A DNA stretch of 32,000 nt, taken from contig NZ_CP042905.2 of the NCBI RefSeq assembly GCF_008000775.2, forward strand, positions 990,001 to 1,022,000, written 5' to 3'. Position numbers and translations under genes: made by a program. The notes beneath the pieces were generated by a model. It made no database searches, was not told the DNA's origin, and was given only the letters and a program-made list of their open reading frames with translations. Shown piece after piece: positions 2,091 to 11,652 of the stretch. Numbering within the stretch: the stretch's first letter is position 1; the number at the start of each line of letters is the position of its first letter. This DNA is from Promethearchaeum syntrophicum. Its GTDB lineage: Archaea; Asgardarchaeota; Lokiarchaeia; Sigyniarchaeales; Promethearchaeaceae.

Positions 2091-4532
2091 ATGTTGGATC
2101 AATTTATTAATCATGAATTTTTAAAACCGAATTTACTTTTAAAACGGAAATATCAAGTTGATATTTTCGTCACTTGTTCAAAAAAAAATTGTTTAGTAGT
2201 AGTTCCAACTGGGTTGGGAAAAACTATTATTGCTTTATTGTTAAGTCTCCATTATTTAAAAAAAAAAAAAAAATCAAAGATTATTTTTTTGGCACCCACC
2301 AGGCCTTTAGTAGAGCAACACCTGCAAACTTTTAAAAATCTAACAAATTTTGATTCTGAATCACTCATAATGATGACTGGAACAATAGCGCCAAAAAAAA
2401 GGGTAGAATTATATAAAGAAGATGATACGAAATGTTTCTTCATGACACCCCAAGTGCTTCAAAATGATATTATTGGGAATAGAGTATCTTTATTAGATGT
2501 AGCTTTAATAATATTCGATGAGGCACACCGCGCAAGTGGAAATTATGCATATAATTTCCTAGCTAAGAAATATGTTGAACATGCAAGAAAACCAAGAATT
2601 CTCGCAATGACCGCTTCCCCCGGAAAAAATCGAGAAATAATAGAGGAAGTAATGCAAAACCTATTTTTAGAAACAATTGAGATCCGGACAGATTCGGATC
2701 CGGATGTTAAACCCTATATTCAAGATGTGAAGGTGATATGGAAAGATATTGAGCTTCCTGAAGAAATGCATCAATTGAATCGACTTATTGTGGAAATGAA
2801 GAAGAAAATCTATAAAGAATTAAAATCAAATGAATTATTGGATTCAGAAAATGTGCAAAAAATCACACGAAGAAACTTGTTAAGTGCGATGTCTGCCTTA
2901 GATGCACTTATTGTAAAGGGAAAATACGGAAGTGACCTTCCTCGACTTTTATATTGTAAAAAATTATTCTCTAATGCAATTAGATTATCTCATATGTCTG
3001 AATTGCTTGAAGCTCATGGGATTAAATCATTAAAAACTTATCTTGATAAGAATTTAAAAGATGTCCAAGAAGGAAAAGGAGGGAAATCTCTTGAGGAATT
3101 ATTCAATAATTCACGAATGGATGAGATAATTGAGAATGTGAAAATGCTTACTTTTGATAAAGTAGATCATCCCAAAATGATCATTTTGATGGATATATTA
3201 CAAGAACAATTCCAGATTAACCCTGAATCTAGGATATTAGTTTTTTGCCATTTTCGTGATACGATCTCTCATATCATTAAAGAAATTAGCAATAACGAAC
3301 TAATTAAACCTTCAAAATTTATAGGCCAGCAAACTAAAGGCAAAGAAAAAGGATTTTCTCAAAAAAAGCAACTTGAAATTCTTGAACAATTCAAAAATGG
3401 GGATTTTAATACACTAGTGGCAACGTCTGTTGGTGAAGAAGGCTTAGATATTTCGGAATGTGATGTTGTAATATTTTTTGATGTGGTTCCCAGTGAAATT
3501 CGCGCCATTCAGCGCCGAGGGAGAACCGGTAGAAATAAATCAGGAAAGGTATACGTTTTTAAAACTAAAGGTACTCGTGAAGAAGGATATTTTTGGGCTG
3601 AAAAAAGGAGGGAAAAGGAAATGAAACGTGTTTTGAAAGAGATTAAGAAAGATTTGGGTGATTCACCCTTGCAGAGAAAATCTAAAAAAAAAAAAGATCT
3701 GATTTCTTTTATTCAAACTTCTGGAAAAAAGCAAATATCTTCTCAAAAGGAAGTTCTCGCTAAGGAAAAGAATAGTGAAAAGAGTGAAAAAAATGAGATT
3801 GATAATGAAACTAAATTTGAGAAAAAGAAAATCAATTTCTCTGCAAATACAGTCCCAATTGACAGTTCAGAACCTAAAATTCTAGTAGATTCCAGAGAAA
3901 CCGCCTCATCTGTCACAAGAGAGTTATCAGAAAGAAACGCTTTAATATCTCTAGAAAAACTACCAATAGGTGATTATATAATATCAGAACGCTGCGGAAT
4001 TGAGCGTAAAAGTGTTCAAGATTTTACTGATTCAATAAAGGATGGTCGACTTTTTAAAGAATTACAGAAACTTCGAACACAATTTTCTTTACCAATCTTA
4101 ATTTTGGAAGGAAATTTGAATTCCATTCTTAGTATTAAACGAGCTGCTATCCTTGGAACACTATCAAGTATTTTATTAAATATGAATATTTTACTACTTC
4201 AAACATTATCTCCCGAAGAAACTGCTGAAATGCTTTATGCTCTAGCAAAAAAAGAACAACAAACCAAAGATAAGAAGAATTTTTCTATCAGATTTAAAAA
4301 ATTACCTGAGAAGATTTCTGAGCAGATGGAATATATTGTTTCTGGAATTCCTGGAATAAATTCTTCAAGAGCTAAGGATTTACTTAACCAATTTCATTCT
4401 TTGAGAGAATTATTCTCTGCTGAGATAGAAGATCTAGAAAAAACTCCAAATATTGGTCCAGTTCTAGCTCAAACAATTTTAAAATATTCCATAACGGATT
4501 ATGAAAAATCAACAAAAACTGAAAATCAGTGA
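2091..4532 (+). CDS. hef: Hef: FANCM-type DEAH helicase fused to an XPF/ERCC4 nuclease and C-terminal HhH
   Basis: 813-aa ORF. Helicase motifs: VVVPTGLGKT (motif I), FDEAHRASG (DEAH), MTASPG, VATSVGEEGLD, RRGRTGR. A Lys/Ser/Glu-rich linker follows. Then the ERCC4 motifs VDSRE ... GDYIIS ... GIERKSVQDF and a terminal helix-hairpin-helix region (GIPGINSSRAKDLL ... IGPVLAQTI). Confidence 0.9.
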   Translation: MLDQFINHEFLKPNLLLKRKYQVDIFVTCSKKNCLVVVPTGLGKTIIALLLSLHYLKKKKKSKIIFLAPTRPLVEQHLQTFKNLTNFDSESLIMMTGTIAPKKRVELYKEDDTKCFFMTPQVLQNDIIGNRVSLLDVALIIFDEAHRASGNYAYNFLAKKYVEHARKPRILAMTASPGKNREIIEEVMQNLFLETIEIRTDSDPDVKPYIQDVKVIWKDIELPEEMHQLNRLIVEMKKKIYKELKSNELLDSENVQKITRRNLLSAMSALDALIVKGKYGSDLPRLLYCKKLFSNAIRLSHMSELLEAHGIKSLKTYLDKNLKDVQEGKGGKSLEELFNNSRMDEIIENVKMLTFDKVDHPKMIILMDILQEQFQINPESRILVFCHFRDTISHIIKEISNNELIKPSKFIGQQTKGKEKGFSQKKQLEILEQFKNGDFNTLVATSVGEEGLDISECDVVIFFDVVPSEIRAIQRRGRTGRNKSGKVYVFKTKGTREEGYFWAEKRREKEMKRVLKEIKKDLGDSPLQRKSKKKKDLISFIQTSGKKQISSQKEVLAKEKNSEKSEKNEIDNETKFEKKKINFSANTVPIDSSEPKILVDSRETASSVTRELSERNALISLEKLPIGDYIISERCGIERKSVQDFTDSIKDGRLFKELQKLRTQFSLPILILEGNLNSILSIKRAAILGTLSSILLNMNILLLQTLSPEETAEMLYALAKKEQQTKDKKNFSIRFKKLPEKISEQMEYIVSGIPGINSSRAKDLLNQFHSLRELFSAEIEDLEKTPNIGPVLAQTILKYSITDYEKSTKTENQ
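2258..2273. repeat. A16 homopolymer inside the hef coding sequence (encodes KKKKK)
   Basis: Read directly: ...cattatttaaaaaaaaaaaaaaaatcaaag..., lying between helicase motifs I and Ia. Confidence 0.95.
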
Positions 4533-5435: not shown

Positions 5436-6053
5436 ATGGCTAGGAAAAAAAAAAAAAAACAACAAGAATCACCTTCGAGTACTATTCAACCTTTGGAGCA
5501 AACAAAAGAATTAATGGGAATGTTACAAGGGTCGGATGATAAAGAAATTATTAAGCAAGAAAAAACTGAGAGTTCTGAAATCGAAAAAAGTGTTAATCAA
5601 TCGCCACCTCCTCCTCCTCCTCCTCCATCAACTGATTCTTCTGTAGCCCCTCCGATATCTCAAGAAGAACAAAAAACTGATGAAAGAACCACTTCTTCCT
5701 TTTTCAAAGATACGGGAGAATTCTTCAATCAACTTGGGGAGGCTTATGAAGCTCGTTATTCTCTCTGGGAAAAATCAGATTTAACAGTAATGGCAATACT
5801 CCGTGAAATTAGAAAAATAAATGAAGAAAACACAGATCAATTTGTTAAAGCTATTAATGTTTTGGATAATAAGATCTCAAAGGGTTTTAATGAATTTTTA
5901 GTTAAAAGAAGTGAACTTGAAAGATATTCAGATACAGATTATAAAGAAATCGCTAAAAATTTCCAAAAAACATTAGATTTATTAAATTTTCAAATCAGAG
6001 AGTTTAAGCTAAATCAAATGGTGACGGCGATGTTCAATATTTATGCAAAATAA
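5436..6053 (+). CDS. Hypothetical protein: basic/low-complexity N-terminus, P8 tract, helical C-terminal half
   Basis: 205-aa ORF. Starts MARKKKKKQQ (an A15 run at 5445-5459), then SPPPPPPPPS. The C-terminal ~110 aa reads as amphipathic helices. I recognise no family. Confidence 0.5.
   Translation: MARKKKKKQQESPSSTIQPLEQTKELMGMLQGSDDKEIIKQEKTESSEIEKSVNQSPPPPPPPPSTDSSVAPPISQEEQKTDERTTSSFFKDTGEFFNQLGEAYEARYSLWEKSDLTVMAILREIRKINEENTDQFVKAINVLDNKISKGFNEFLVKRSELERYSDTDYKEIAKNFQKTLDLLNFQIREFKLNQMVTAMFNIYAK
5607..5624. repeat. (CCT)6 trinucleotide repeat encoding the core of the poly-proline tract
   Basis: Read directly: cca cct cct cct cct cct cct cca (5604-5627), in frame with the 5436 ORF. Confidence 0.95.
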
Positions 6054-6160
6054 AATCGAGTCGAATTGTTTTACGTACATATGCGAATGGGATTTTTTCA
6101 AAGATATTAATTTTTCATCAAATTTTATTTAAGGTTATAATCCTTATTAGTTTTAGAATA

Positions 6161-7249
6161 ATGGATATCTTAATTGATGTTGGAGCTTTTGAAAGTTTGA
6201 TTGGTATTCCAAATGAGGAAATTTATAGATTCCGAGAAAGATCTGTATATTCTGATTCAAATAATCCTATAATTAAAAAAACAGTAATGCAAGGTGCTCT
6301 AGCAGAAATTAATTTTAAGAGGTATTATGGAAATGCTGCATTGCGGTTTAAAAATGTACTAAATGTTCAGTATTTCATGAAAGAGAAGGATTTCATTTCT
6401 TATTCAAAATTAATTGGAAAAAAATTGCTTGAATTATCATTGAAACCAAAAGAAACAGGGTTGGTGTTAGTGGTATCAAATCACTTTTCAAAAAATGATA
6501 AACTAAATCTTCAAAACTCATTATTTCAAACTCTTAAAATCCCTCGAATTGCCTTTTTACCTCACACAGCTTCAATTTTAACTGAATTGGAATTAAATAC
6601 AGGAGTAATTATTGATATGGGATATTATTCTACTAGAATTGAAAGTATTTATAAAGGTTTTCCTAATTCGGATAGTCAATTTATATTTCCATTGGGTGGA
6701 TATCATGTTACTCAACAGATACTTAATAATATCTTTTCTCGTCTTGAATATAGGTCGGATTTACCACTTTTATGGGAATCAGAACGTATTAAAAATGAAA
6801 AATTATTTGTTGTGGAAGATCCTGAGAAGTGCTCTGACCAAATTCATAAAGGATTTAAAAATTTTGATTTCATCATGGAATTACCTGATGGAAAGGAGAT
6901 AATATTAAATAAAGAAAGATATGAACCCGCAGAAATCTTTTTTAATCCATTAATTGCCCATACCAGATCTGAAAATATAGTTGAATTAATTGAAAATTCT
7001 ATAAAATCTTGGGAAAGAGATCATTTAAGAGAACTTTGCTCCAATATTATCATTATAGGTAATGGTGGTAAAATTCCAGGATTAAATCAAAAAATTGAAA
7101 AATTATTAAAAAAAAGATTTGCGGAATCAGTGGATGTTAAAATCATTGAAATTTCAGATCAAAAAGATATATTCTGGATCGGGGCTTCTAAATTTATTAA
7201 ATCTAAAAAAGAATTAAAATGGATTTCAAATCCATCAACGGAGATTTAA
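6161..7249 (+). CDS. Actin-family protein (divergent actin-related protein with degenerate nucleotide-binding loops)
   Basis: 362-aa ORF. By-eye alignment to actin: [17 protein letters not shown] ~ [42 protein letters not shown] ~ [46 protein letters not shown] ~ [31 protein letters not shown] ~ YSVWIGGSIL. The N-terminal [12 protein letters not shown] stands in place of VVDNGSGMCKAG. Confidence 0.8.
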   Translation: [362 protein letters not shown]

Positions 7250-7252
7250 AAA

Positions 7253-9814
7253 TTGTCCAAATTAGAATTAGAGAATATTACCGATTTCTATAAAAAAATT
7301 TCCAAGATTCAAAATTTATTAGATGAATTTAATCATTTTTGGGCAAAAGAGTTATTTAATCAAATTATTAAGGAAATCGAAATAAAAATTGAAACAATAT
7401 CTGAACGTATAAGTATTTATAACATTTTAATTAATATTTGGGAGTCTTATGTTAAAAATTTAGTTTCAGATTTGTATAGTAATTGGCCTTTGATCTATGA
7501 TGCATATAATTGTATTTTTGAAATTTTATCTGTCTTAAATGAATCAAATCGCATTTCAGAGATCGGAATTAGGCTAGTAAAAATTTTCCATAAAATAAAA
7601 TTTACCAATAATAAAAATATTGCAAAAATATTAGAGTCACTTGCATTATTGATATATAATTCTGAAAACTTTCAAAAATCGTTAGAATTATTCTTCTTAT
7701 CATTCTATTTTAATGAAGGATTTCTCCAGACTCCCAGCAGTGATGAATGTTTTAAAAAATTTAATTCTCTACTTTTAAAATTATCCACTGATCATCGTGA
7801 TATTTTGCTTAATGCATTTTTATTTGAGATTTATGATGGTTTTTTTGATGGTAACAATATAAAATTTCAAGATTTTACTGAAATGCTGTATAGGATATCA
7901 TTCCAAAATTTTGAATTCACCCTTCACAAAAGTATGCAAAAAATATCCCAACATTCCATAAATTTTCAAGAAGAAATAGGATTAGTAGAAGAAACTATTG
8001 ATTTTCTTCAAATGATAAAGGAAGAAAGATGGGCTTTTTCAGTAGTGAAAATATATTCCAATATACTCTATAAACTAAATAAAAATCAAAAATTAGAGAA
8101 ATTCATTTATTCCTTTATAGAAAAATCGTGTAAACATGGTGAATATTCAACCGCGTTAAAAACTTATTCTTATTTGGATGAGATAACATATTCAAATGAT
8201 TCTGAATTTCAAATAAGAAGCATTAAGATATGGGCAAAAGCTGCCAAAAATTTTAGAAAATTAGCTGACAAATCATATTTTGTCTCAGCAATAAAAAGCT
8301 TCCGTGAATTATTAAAATTACCCAAAGATCCCCGGTTATTTCAAGATTTTACATACGCATTCAATGAATATTATCGTTTAGTTCGGGGAAGGTTGAATAT
8401 TGATGAAGAAGAATTCTGGTGGATTGCTTTTCATAGAAGTATTTTTGAAGAGGGATTTAAAGATATTGCAGAGCTAAGTGCTAAAAATCTAAATATTGCC
8501 CAATTACCATTATTTGAATCAATGATTAATGACGGCATTCAGAAAACAATTGAAATGAAAACAAGACTAGCTAAAACTAACGATCCTATAGATATTGGAG
8601 GAATGATACCATCTAAAATTATTATTAAACTCCGAATTCCGGCAAATAAAAATATGAAAATGTATTCTGAATTAATTTATACATCAGGTTTTTCTAAACC
8701 AGAATTAGTAAAAATTGACGAGATATGGAAAGAACCTCAGTTAATTAAGTTATATATGCAATTGCCATTCAATAATCCCCAAATCGAAAATTTAAATCAA
8801 TCTCAAATATCACAAGTTCAATTTGGAAAATTAGCTTTTCTTTTTCTTCCTCAAGAACTTAGAATGTTTTTCTCACAACTAAATATTGGAAAGGATCATG
8901 TTCCTGAAATTTTCATTATAATGGATGAACCTGGGTATCCATTTGAAATGTTACACGATGAAAAATCATCATTAGGAACAAAATTCGCATTTGGATATAG
9001 GTTTGATGAACCAAAATTAAGTCCAGAGAAAATAGTAATTCAAGACCAACCTGAAGATGTTGTGAATTTGAAATATATGATCTTAGCTATAGGTGATTTA
9101 AATAGGAATTTCCCTAAAATTTGGAATGAAAATGATAAGAAATATTATCCCCTCTACCCATTCCCCGAGAGTTCAAAACAATTAGAATTTCTTGAATCTA
9201 AATTAAATAATCTTCTACATTTAGTCGAAAAATCTACATTTCTCAATTCACAGTCCGGAACTTATCAAAATATTGAAAAAGAAATTACTTCTGGTTTATA
9301 TAATATCATCTACATTTCTTCAAACCTTTTTTATATTGAAGAAAATCCCCTTCATTCATATTTTATCACTCCTGATGATAAAATAATAAACCTTCAAGAT
9401 ATTCTAGAAATGCTTGAATTTGCTCAAAAACACAATGAGATACAAGGAATTCCATTCTTTAAACCATTATTAGTTTTTGATGCCCATATTATTGATAGGT
9501 CTGGTAAGATCATATCTAGATCGTTCAATCAATTAAGTAATATATCAAAATTAGTTGGATCAAAAAATAATCTTGGAATTTTAGCGAGGATCTCTATTGA
9601 ATTCGATGAAATTTTAAAATTATTTTTATCTGAATTTATTAATCGGCTCTTTCTAAGAGAATCAATAGGTTCAGCCTTACTCAAAGCTCATAAACAGCTA
9701 TATAGAATAGTCAAAAGTTTAGAAAAACTTGATGAAGACAATTATTCTCTTTCGCAAACGCTCTTAGAGACTCATTATGTATTTTATGGTAATTTATTTA
9801 ATTTTTTGGAATAA
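7253..9814 (+). CDS. Large hypothetical protein: N-terminal helical (TPR-like) region plus C-terminal CHAT-like (caspase-fold) domain lacking the His/Cys dyad
   Basis: 853-aa ORF with a TTG start 3 nt after the actin-gene stop. GGAG at 7240-7243 is a plausible Shine-Dalgarno. There is no in-frame ATG for roughly the first 210 codons. The C-terminal ~300 aa follow CHAT motif order: IFIIMDEPGYPFEML, FAFGYRF, PFPESSKQLEFLE, NIIYISSNLFY at the His-motif position, KPLLVFDAHIID at the Cys-motif position, and IGSALLKAHKQL at the end. Confidence 0.6.
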   Translation: MSKLELENITDFYKKISKIQNLLDEFNHFWAKELFNQIIKEIEIKIETISERISIYNILINIWESYVKNLVSDLYSNWPLIYDAYNCIFEILSVLNESNRISEIGIRLVKIFHKIKFTNNKNIAKILESLALLIYNSENFQKSLELFFLSFYFNEGFLQTPSSDECFKKFNSLLLKLSTDHRDILLNAFLFEIYDGFFDGNNIKFQDFTEMLYRISFQNFEFTLHKSMQKISQHSINFQEEIGLVEETIDFLQMIKEERWAFSVVKIYSNILYKLNKNQKLEKFIYSFIEKSCKHGEYSTALKTYSYLDEITYSNDSEFQIRSIKIWAKAAKNFRKLADKSYFVSAIKSFRELLKLPKDPRLFQDFTYAFNEYYRLVRGRLNIDEEEFWWIAFHRSIFEEGFKDIAELSAKNLNIAQLPLFESMINDGIQKTIEMKTRLAKTNDPIDIGGMIPSKIIIKLRIPANKNMKMYSELIYTSGFSKPELVKIDEIWKEPQLIKLYMQLPFNNPQIENLNQSQISQVQFGKLAFLFLPQELRMFFSQLNIGKDHVPEIFIIMDEPGYPFEMLHDEKSSLGTKFAFGYRFDEPKLSPEKIVIQDQPEDVVNLKYMILAIGDLNRNFPKIWNENDKKYYPLYPFPESSKQLEFLESKLNNLLHLVEKSTFLNSQSGTYQNIEKEITSGLYNIIYISSNLFYIEENPLHSYFITPDDKIINLQDILEMLEFAQKHNEIQGIPFFKPLLVFDAHIIDRSGKIISRSFNQLSNISKLVGSKNNLGILARISIEFDEILKLFLSEFINRLFLRESIGSALLKAHKQLYRIVKSLEKLDEDNYSLSQTLLETHYVFYGNLFNFLE

Positions 9815-9830
9815 GCTAAAAGTTAAAAAT

Positions 9831-9866
9831 AATAGATAGAATTAGAAAATAATAGAATTAGAAAAT
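9831..9866. repeat. Imperfect tandem repeat (aatagaattagaaaat unit, twice) in the gap upstream of the 172-aa gene
   Basis: Read directly: aatagATAGaattagaaaat followed by aatagaattagaaaat, ending 22 nt before the ATG at 9889. Confidence 0.8.
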
Positions 9867-9888
9867 ATTACATCGAGGTAAATTTGAA

Positions 9889-10407
9889 ATGTCCTTATTA
9901 CGTGCAGAAAACATAAAATTGAGAACTAAAGTTGAAGATCTTGAAAATCGATTATTAAATTTAGTCGGAACGATTAAAATCTTCACCGGTGGAATGCCCG
10001 GGAACGAACATATTATGAATAACAATATTGCAGAAATAATCACAAATGCAACTGATTTAAAGATTGTTGCACCTTACATCACTAATGAATATGCTATGAT
10101 ATTAAAAGATCGGGCAATGAATGGCATTAAAGTTCAAATTGTCCTAAATGACAGGCGAATGTGGCCCGCAAAATTTGTCGATATATATGATGAAATAAAA
10201 GTGACAAATGGAATAGATCTCATTAACAATCCAAATGTAAAATACCTTTTAGTTTGGAGTCCAAAAACAGCTTTATTTACCAGTGGACCTCTTGATAAGG
10301 ATTCTCTGATGAATACGGTTCTTATTGGCACTCTAATCAATGAAAAAGGTAAAATAAATGAATTATTAAAAATATTCCAATTAATGTTGCCTTCTTTCAT
10401 GCGATAA
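9889..10407 (+). CDS. Hypothetical protein: short N-terminal coiled coil plus PLD-like (PLDc_2-type) domain with a degenerate HKD motif
   Basis: 172-aa ORF. The layout resembles single-domain PLD/Nuc proteins: DLKIVAPYITNEYAMILKDRAMNGIKVQIVLNDRR ... NVKYLLVWSPKTALFTSGPLDKDSL. NVK stands where HxK is expected, and no Asp is at the +7 position. Confidence 0.4.
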   Translation: MSLLRAENIKLRTKVEDLENRLLNLVGTIKIFTGGMPGNEHIMNNNIAEIITNATDLKIVAPYITNEYAMILKDRAMNGIKVQIVLNDRRMWPAKFVDIYDEIKVTNGIDLINNPNVKYLLVWSPKTALFTSGPLDKDSLMNTVLIGTLINEKGKINELLKIFQLMLPSFMR

Positions 10408-10434: not shown

Positions 10435-11652
10435 ATGGTAGAACATATGGAGAAAAAAACATACATCATCCCCGAATCAGGTGAAAATTCTGATTTTGTA
10501 TATAATTTTTGCATGAAACTATTTTTCTATTTAGGGATGATATGTTTTATTCCTTATTTTATAATCCTCAATATATTAACTACTCCCTTTTTTCCAGATT
10601 CAAGCAACAAGATTTTAATTTATGGATTGATCATAGGCACTTTATTTCTTCTATTTATAATGGATAATATTGGAATGCATTCCTCCTTTATTGATCGAAT
10701 AAGTCGCCTGATAACTTTAATATTAACTGTAGTAGGTGCCTCTCTCTCGATATTAATTCTTATTATCCCGAATATGGTTACTAGTTCAACAAATGTCGAA
10801 TTTTACTTAAAATTGGCAATAATTTTAACATTTGAAATTCTAGGATGGTTTTTCATTAGAAACAGTAGAGGCCTTTCTAAAGTTAAAGTTAAACCATTTT
10901 ATAATACAAGCATGTGGTCTCTTCTACTGTGTGGCATAATCTTTCTGTTTGAATACTTCGTGAAAAATGCAATCTTTGTATTCTTAGCAATAATTTTTTT
11001 GATTTATCCTATTATGATAATTGGATGGGGAAAACTTAAGGTAATTCCTTCAATTAAACCAAGAAAATTGGTGAGACCTTATAAAAGAACTACATTTTAC
11101 AATTATGCCATTGATATTGGAAAAGCTGTAATAATTCTTTTAACAATTCTTGCAGTTATTTATGATGGAACAGTTGTGTTATATCCTGCTGAATTAAGTT
11201 CTAATCCCGCTGCATGGATTCGGAATTTGGCAATAGTTGGAATTTTTGCAGCATTAGCAATGGAATTTTATATAAAAATTCAAACCGCTTTTTATGGCTT
11301 GGCTGTTATAATTATTCTCTATTTACTTTGTTTAATTCAATACCTTCTTGTTAACACTTTTTATTTTCATTTTTGGTATCTAATTGCACCAATAAATGGA
11401 TTCACGCTAGCGGGAGTTTATTTCTTCATCGAACAAAAATTATTTAAATCCAACAATGTAAGAGCAATGCCGGGAAGTTTCTATGTATTAATCCTAATTA
11501 TTGTTATCAGCGCGATAATCCTAAGAATAACCCCTGATGTTGATGATATTATTGAAAATTCGAAATTTGCATTATCCTTAATTGGATTGGCTTATATCAT
11601 AGGATATATACGTGAAGCACCAAAACAAACATCACTTCGAATTTCTATATAA
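10435..11652 (+). CDS. Polytopic integral membrane protein, unknown function
   Basis: 405-aa ORF, almost entirely successive hydrophobic segments. It starts 27 nt after the PLD-like gene on the same strand. Confidence 0.55.
   Translation: MVEHMEKKTYIIPESGENSDFVYNFCMKLFFYLGMICFIPYFIILNILTTPFFPDSSNKILIYGLIIGTLFLLFIMDNIGMHSSFIDRISRLITLILTVVGASLSILILIIPNMVTSSTNVEFYLKLAIILTFEILGWFFIRNSRGLSKVKVKPFYNTSMWSLLLCGIIFLFEYFVKNAIFVFLAIIFLIYPIMIIGWGKLKVIPSIKPRKLVRPYKRTTFYNYAIDIGKAVIILLTILAVIYDGTVVLYPAELSSNPAAWIRNLAIVGIFAALAMEFYIKIQTAFYGLAVIIILYLLCLIQYLLVNTFYFHFWYLIAPINGFTLAGVYFFIEQKLFKSNNVRAMPGSFYVLILIIVISAIILRITPDVDDIIENSKFALSLIGLAYIIGYIREAPKQTSLRISI

Follow-up and report, generated by a model that had tools for sequence, protein, structure and literature searches.

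Two long open reading frames (ORFs) in the chromosome of the Asgard archaeon Promethearchaeum raise the question of whether they are expressed as two genes or read through as one. The stretch of DNA analysed here (the window) is 32,000 nucleotides long and corresponds to bases 990001-1022000 of a closed, single-contig 4.32-Mb chromosome with a GC content of 31%. Within it, an ORF for an actin-related protein (Arp; 6161-7249) and an ORF for a protein of 853 amino acids (aa; 7253-9814) lie in one common reading frame, and the junction between them reads acg-GAG-ATT-TAA-AAA-TTG-TCC. The original prediction had offered three readings of this arrangement, namely initiation at TTG aided by an upstream GGAG and coupled to Arp translation, readthrough of the TAA codon to yield a fused protein, and a recently split gene or an assembly error. 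Its description of the junction was accurate in every element, including the shared frame, the order TAA-AAA-TTG, and the location of GGAG 9 nt before TTG. Our analysis indicates that this is very probably an ordinary operon junction that gives rise to two separate proteins through Shine-Dalgarno (SD)-assisted, and probably coupled, initiation at TTG 7253. Comparisons were made with a sample of 41 orthologous loci (33 distinct), designated L001-L041, from two families (f1 and f3) of one Asgard order, with the window belonging to f1. The features at the junction are as follows.

6161..7249, + strand: gene for the divergent Arp, 362 aa, with an ATG start and a TAA stop (Pfam Actin PF00022)
7240..7243, + strand: Shine-Dalgarno-like GGAG within the 3' end of the Arp gene, 9 nt from TTG (sequence; match to 16S rRNA)
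7247..7249, + strand: TAA, the Arp stop codon (stop at the homologous position in L002 and L003)
7250..7252, + strand: AAA, the 3-nt spacer (sequence)
7253..7255, + strand: TTG, start codon of the 853-aa gene (sole canonical start in the open frame)
7253..9814, + strand: gene for a predicted helical-repeat (TPR-like) and CHAT/separase-like protein of 853 aa, without the catalytic dyad (fold and profile comparison)

The frame of the 853-aa ORF opens immediately 3' of the TAA codon, and hence no canonical start other than TTG 7253 is available to it. The next in-frame TTG is codon 74, and there is no GTG within the first 220 codons. The absence of an in-frame ATG for roughly 210 codons, as had been predicted, was confirmed, with the first ATG being codon 211. 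Alignments with homologues begin at residues 2-9 of the 853-aa protein, the N-terminus MSKLELENITDFYKK is kept in relatives, and independent gene calls, including those for the closest metagenomic relatives (71-88% identical), begin at the same residue. Across the orthologous loci, the homologous start position is occupied by ATG, TTG or GTG, with TTG also present in L005, L010, L034 and L038, and GTG in L039. Sequence comparison indicates that TTG 7253 is the true start of the 853-aa gene.

The GGAG located inside the Arp gene is complementary to the anti-SD sequence ...CCTCC, which is included in the 3' end of the 16S rRNA of this genome (...GGATCACCTCC). A GGAG-type motif is found at the same place in orthologues from the window's family (L002, L003, L005 and L006), where it takes the forms caGGAGaat, ctGGAGAg, tAGGAGaaGGA and caGGAGGG. 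For a genome-wide comparison, GGAG, GAGG or GGTG at positions -16 to -5 was counted as an SD-like motif, and a spacer of -8 to +12 nt between co-directional long ORFs was counted as a tight junction. Such motifs are present at 48% of the 306 tight junctions in this genome and at 4.5% of its random positions, which represents an approximately ten-fold enrichment. In addition, TTG is the obligatory start of 61 long ORFs, whose following 60 codons contain neither ATG nor GTG, and one in four of these ORFs carries an SD-like motif. TTG is a regular minority start in this genome. Among the orthologues, an SD-like motif (GGAG, AGGAGG, GGTGG, GTGAG or GGAGAG, within 20 nt upstream) precedes all six distinct non-ATG starts, which are the TTG of L001 and the four TTG starts and one GTG start named above. 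The ATG starts of the sister family (f3) mostly follow AT-rich spacers of 18-63 nt that lack an SD. This distribution hints at two initiation modes for one gene pair across the families.

The shared reading frame is the feature that made the locus appear unusual, and its value as evidence can be judged from the orthologues. The relation between the frames of Arp and its partner is distributed 14/14/13 over the 41 loci and 12/13/8 over the 33 distinct loci, and the two genes are in another frame in 21 of 32 distinct orthologous loci. Across the window's family (six species), spacers measure -4 (an ATGA overlap), +1, +1, +1, +3 and +5 nt. Most of those in the sister family span 10-63 nt and a single one measures 2 nt, and the spacers of that family's same-frame loci often contain two to five in-frame stops. 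Within this genome, 90 of the 306 tight junctions are in frame, and spacers of exactly 3 nt separate 22 co-directional long-ORF pairs, several of which read 'TAA aaa ATG'. Since the frames of the orthologues are about random and in-frame tight junctions are numerous in the genome, the shared frame is uninformative. It is a chance coincidence.

Under the favoured interpretation, ribosomes would end Arp synthesis at the TAA codon (7247-7249), and the 853-aa protein would be initiated 3 nt further on at TTG 7253 with the aid of the GGAG inside the Arp coding sequence. With a spacer of 3 nt, initiation is probably coupled to Arp termination by way of termination-reinitiation, a process that was shown in Haloferax and E. 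coli to depend on overlapping or very closely spaced genes and to be nearly abolished at a distance of about 20 nt (Huber et al. 2023, PMC10666635). The spacer in the window falls inside the range where this process is efficient according to that study. Coupling of this type would favour matched amounts of Arp and the 853-aa protein, and subunits of heteromeric complexes are over-represented among the products of closely spaced coupled pairs (Huber et al. 2019, PMC6728339). The two genes are presumably also co-transcribed, and a scan of the region revealed no terminator-like site on the + strand between them. A sigma-70 promoter scan was discarded because it is inapplicable to an archaeon, and only the terminator result was used.

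Like known coupled gene pairs of archaea and bacteria, the Arp and 853-aa genes form a conserved same-strand pair with only a few nucleotides between them, and the SD of the second gene lies within the terminal coding sequence of the first. They differ from such pairs in having a +3 spacer rather than the commonest -4 or -1 overlap, in the use of TTG as the start, and in the sister family's failure to keep the tight spacing; in addition, we infer the coupling here. Several observations weigh against the favoured interpretation. The sister-family spacers of 10-63 nt mostly lack an SD (bar the one 2-nt spacer), and therefore what is conserved about the pair is adjacency only and not coupling. 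Moreover, TTG is a weak start, and an AlphaFold2 (AF2) model of the read-through product places the two proteins without confidence, with a predicted template modelling score (pTM) of 0.43 compared to 0.75 for the partner alone.

These same sister-family spacers lend some credit to an alternative that we regard as rather unlikely, in which the genes are separate and the downstream gene is initiated independently and without coupling, either through de novo 30S binding at the GGAG and TTG or from an internal promoter in the 3' end of Arp that generates a short-leader transcript. The pair works in the sister family without tight coupling, an SD alone can recruit ribosomes, and the AT-rich sequence offers many TATA-like boxes. 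However, spacers stay between -4 and +5 nt throughout the window's family (six species), which is the efficient range for termination-reinitiation (PMC10666635), and a weak TTG start would gain from coupling. The earlier proposal of GGAG-aided initiation at TTG is upheld by the lack of any other start, the conserved N-terminus, the 16S rRNA match and the enrichment of SD-like motifs, with the coupling itself being probable.

Readthrough of the TAA codon, which would generate a minor Arp-TPR-CHAT fusion of approximately 1217 residues beside the separate proteins, is very improbable. The sole evidence for this reading of the original prediction is the common frame with just TAA-AAA between the two ORFs, and it is countered by the frames of the orthologues, which differ at 21 of 32 distinct loci, and by intervening sequence of up to 63 nt, which often carries two to five stops even where the frame is shared. 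TAA is also generally the stop codon least prone to recoding. In addition, the RNA of the junction (7205-7300) folds no better than shuffled sequences (z = -0.27), and hence no stimulatory structure was seen.

Searches for a fused form likewise argue against readthrough. A word-indexed protein search over lengths of 469-1493 aa, which would cover the fusion, returned only proteins of 844-853 aa. Six-frame searches detected the family in 30 of 41 genomes and then in 67 of 301 genomes sampled from the phylum. In these 67 genomes, every full-length six-frame match has an open frame of 831-891 aa and none is a fused ORF. A profile search of 1.84 billion representative proteins gave 90 matches, in which full-length family members are 833-911 aa long and match from residues 2-16, with no N-terminal extension or actin domain on any family member among these representatives. 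Ten distant matches, five of which exceed 1000 aa, were scanned for domains. All carry Pfam CHAT, and their other domains include LRR-Roc, TPR, AAA and prenyltransferase-like domains, and never actin. The fused single-ORF orthologues that the original prediction had suggested looking for were therefore found neither in the 67 genomes nor among the 1.84 billion representatives.

The third reading, in which a single gene was recently split or a sequencing or assembly error created the TAA, could draw on the common frame and on the lack of an ATG at the start of the downstream ORF, but its probability is close to negligible, because in two relatives of the same genus (L002 and L003) the homologous Arp codon is likewise a stop and the partner begins at the homologous residue in a different frame (the shared stop marks the TAA as ancestral and not an assembly error), the two-gene state is common to both families and hence ancestral, Arp is full length against actin profiles with alignment to the C-terminus, the N-terminus of the partner is conserved, the genome is a single closed contig, and no orthologue encoded by a single ORF was found in the 67 genomes.

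The upstream gene product matches the Pfam Actin family (PF00022) at 3.3e-29, with a score of 102.2 bits against a cut-off of 27 bits. Its best sequence matches in the PDB are actins at approximately 1e-20, and the alignment to actin reaches the C-terminus. It is encoded by one of six actin-family loci in the genome, with the true Lokiactin (433 bits) located elsewhere. On the basis of these matches, the product of 6161-7249 is an Asgard actin-related protein (ARP) in the sense of Rodrigues-Oliveira et al. (2022, PMC9834061). As with the ARPs of Lokiarchaeum ossiferum and its relatives described in that study, it is a non-Lokiactin paralogue of the actin family, several of which occur per genome. 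It differs from the catalogued Asgard ARPs in being very divergent and in being confined, with its TPR-CHAT-like partner, to two families of one order. The window's family reads DVGAFES at a position where sister-family Arps keep the actin-like DIGSxxxRxGWAGDD.

An additional irregularity was observed on the - strand at L004:5100-5160, which is found in G012, a closed 6.0-Mb genome of the window's family. Here, the Arp ORF has no ATG, GTG or TTG between an upstream in-frame TAG and the conserved N-terminus (G-I-H-I-T-D-V-K-F-D-I-L-V-E-L-G), and GGGG is located 7 nt before an ATC codon. This Arp could have a non-canonical start (ATA, ATC or ATT) or the locus could contain a sequence error.

The 853-aa partner yields little to direct sequence searches. 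No Pfam match was obtained at E <= 0.01, with CHAT (PF12770) included, and a sequence search of the PDB with the family profile gave nothing at E <= 1. Its domain was identified only by fold and profile-profile comparison. The family profile does retrieve Pfam-CHAT proteins, and hhalign against a Pfam-CHAT protein reports a probability of 98.3%. The AF2 model of the protein (mean predicted local distance difference test, or pLDDT, of 82; pTM 0.75) has 21 helices in residues 1-442, followed by a beta domain and then an alpha/beta domain. The top Foldseek ranks for this model are occupied by Csx29 TPR-CHAT (best E value of 2.7e-11), the CHAT anti-sigma factor DdvA, and separases. With VIA-align, the Z score is 19.9 for Csx29 and 17.8 for the separase protease domain 5fby (root-mean-square deviation of 4.5 A over 290 residues). 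The caspase-like alpha/beta fold (residues 451/595-853) has Z scores of 14-20 to Csx29, separase, gingipain and SAVED-CHAT, and of about 10 to caspases. Thus, the 'Arp' and 'TPR-CHAT' labels of the original prediction both hold, the former by the Pfam actin match and the latter by Foldseek, hhalign and VIA-align.

In the hhalign comparison, the position of the catalytic His is taken by the invariant N691, and that of the catalytic Cys by H745 in the window protein and by Gln in the family consensus. The family alignment contains no invariant His or Cys in the CHAT-like domain, and hence the catalytic dyad is absent. Judged by these substitutions and by its predicted fold, the 853-aa protein is a TPR-CHAT/separase-like pseudo-protease that is catalytically dead. 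Such a protein may serve as a non-cutting scaffold or regulator of Arp.

The closest structural parallel is Csx29, the TPR-CHAT protein of the type III-E CRISPR 'Craspase' (PDB 7y9x, 8eex and 7zoq), which also combines N-terminal helical TPR-like repeats with a CHAT caspase fold (Z 18-20). Csx29, too, is encoded beside a partner protein and works bound to it. However, the protein in the window has no CRISPR context, its partner is an actin-related protein, its catalytic His and Cys are replaced throughout the family, and its sequence identity to Csx29 is only about 10%. In comparison with separase, which consists of a helical region, a pseudo-protease and a caspase-like protease (PDB 5fby, 5u1t and 7nj1), the overall layout of the helical N-terminal region is similar and residues 451-853 superpose on the substrate-binding and protease domains. 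In contrast to separase, the 853-aa protein is of far smaller size and has no catalytic dyad, and no securin or kleisin context is evident. Residues 451-853 of the model superpose on separase (5fby) as well as on Csx29. We claim kinship to separase, as suggested by the models, only at the level of the common CHAT/caspase superfamily.

The association of the two genes extends well beyond the window. The orthologous Arp gene is located directly upstream of the partner gene on the same strand in all 33 distinct loci (and in all 41). The 853-aa family, detected in 67 of the 301 genomes, was found only in f1 and f3, bar one weak partial match. It was not found in eight genomes, of which three are from the window's family (G005, G007 and G013) and five are from the sister family (G029, G213, G245, G271 and G280). 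The three genomes from the window's family are at least 91% complete, one being closed, and two of the five from the sister family are 99% complete. The orthologous Arp was likewise not found in these eight genomes, where the best Arp match is a paralogue with 26-32% identity; by comparison, Arp orthologues within the sister family share 50-100% identity with the query that was applied to that family. The Arp and 853-aa genes therefore appear to have been lost together as a unit, although this co-loss is given as a pattern only, without a statistic, since related genomes are non-independent. Because of the strict synteny and the co-loss, we consider the functional link between Arp and its partner to be real, as indicated by gene order and distribution. 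No description of an Asgard ARP paired with a CHAT or separase protein was found in the literature searched.

The original prediction had stated that each of its readings implies a physical or functional link. Its functional part is borne out by the 33/33 adjacency and the co-loss, whereas its physical part is not, as AF2 gave no confident docking. The read-through fusion was modelled with AF2 as a chain of 1200 aa, which omits the C-terminal 17 residues of the partner, from a partly paired alignment in which the paired rows are nine naturally same-frame sister-family pairs whose stops were read as Gly. A first alignment was unusable because MAFFT placed stand-alone Arp rows on the CHAT region, and was replaced by the paired-row alignment. 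The model (pTM 0.43, mean pLDDT 70.9) has a disordered linker (pLDDT <50) and is a weak test of contact, given the shallow alignment, the monomer model, the 2-residue tether and the lack of predicted aligned error. Physical contact between Arp and its partner is putative, and we infer that the two act together. In this same model, Arp residues 29-73 (window 6245-6379; actin subdomain 2 and D-loop) have pLDDT values below 50, and the rest of the core has values of 70-86.

The junction itself needs no special mechanism, and there is no readthrough, fusion or assembly problem to annotate. The annotated start of the 853-aa gene should stay at TTG. The value of the locus instead lies in the gene pair, in which an Asgard Arp and a dead separase/Csx29-like protein are passed on, placed and lost as a unit. 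This pair is a tangible and testable candidate for an Arp-containing complex in archaea. As a tentative proposal, about which we are somewhat more doubtful than confident, the tight junction might reflect a need for matched subunits, with the divergent Arp and the dead TPR-CHAT protein forming a stable complex, perhaps with the neighbouring poly-Pro and PLD-like proteins listed below. Such an actin-related module would be specific to Lokiarchaeales, with the pseudo-protease acting as a scaffold that holds or regulates an ATPase of the actin fold.

The genes that flank the pair are as follows.

5436..6053, + strand: upstream neighbour, 205 aa, with poly-Pro and a helical C-terminal domain (conserved neighbour)
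9889..10407, + strand: downstream neighbour, 172-aa PLD-like protein (weak Pfam PLDc_2 match, 0.0034)
10435-11652: 405-aa gene after the PLD-like gene (within the available flanks, only in the window's family)

Further upstream, a Pfam scan identified a Hef-type helicase-ERCC4 nuclease, an archaeal marker, at window positions 2091-4532. The C-terminal domain of the 205-aa protein is encoded upstream of Arp in both families, within the limits of the 1.5-kb flanks available at each locus. The PLD-like gene is located directly downstream of the partner in 31 of the 33 distinct loci, with 38-90% identity, and is missing at L030 and L038, the latter of which is cut by a contig end. Both families have a common four-gene order (window 5436-10407), which consists of the poly-Pro/helical, Arp, TPR-CHAT-like and 172-aa PLD-like genes.

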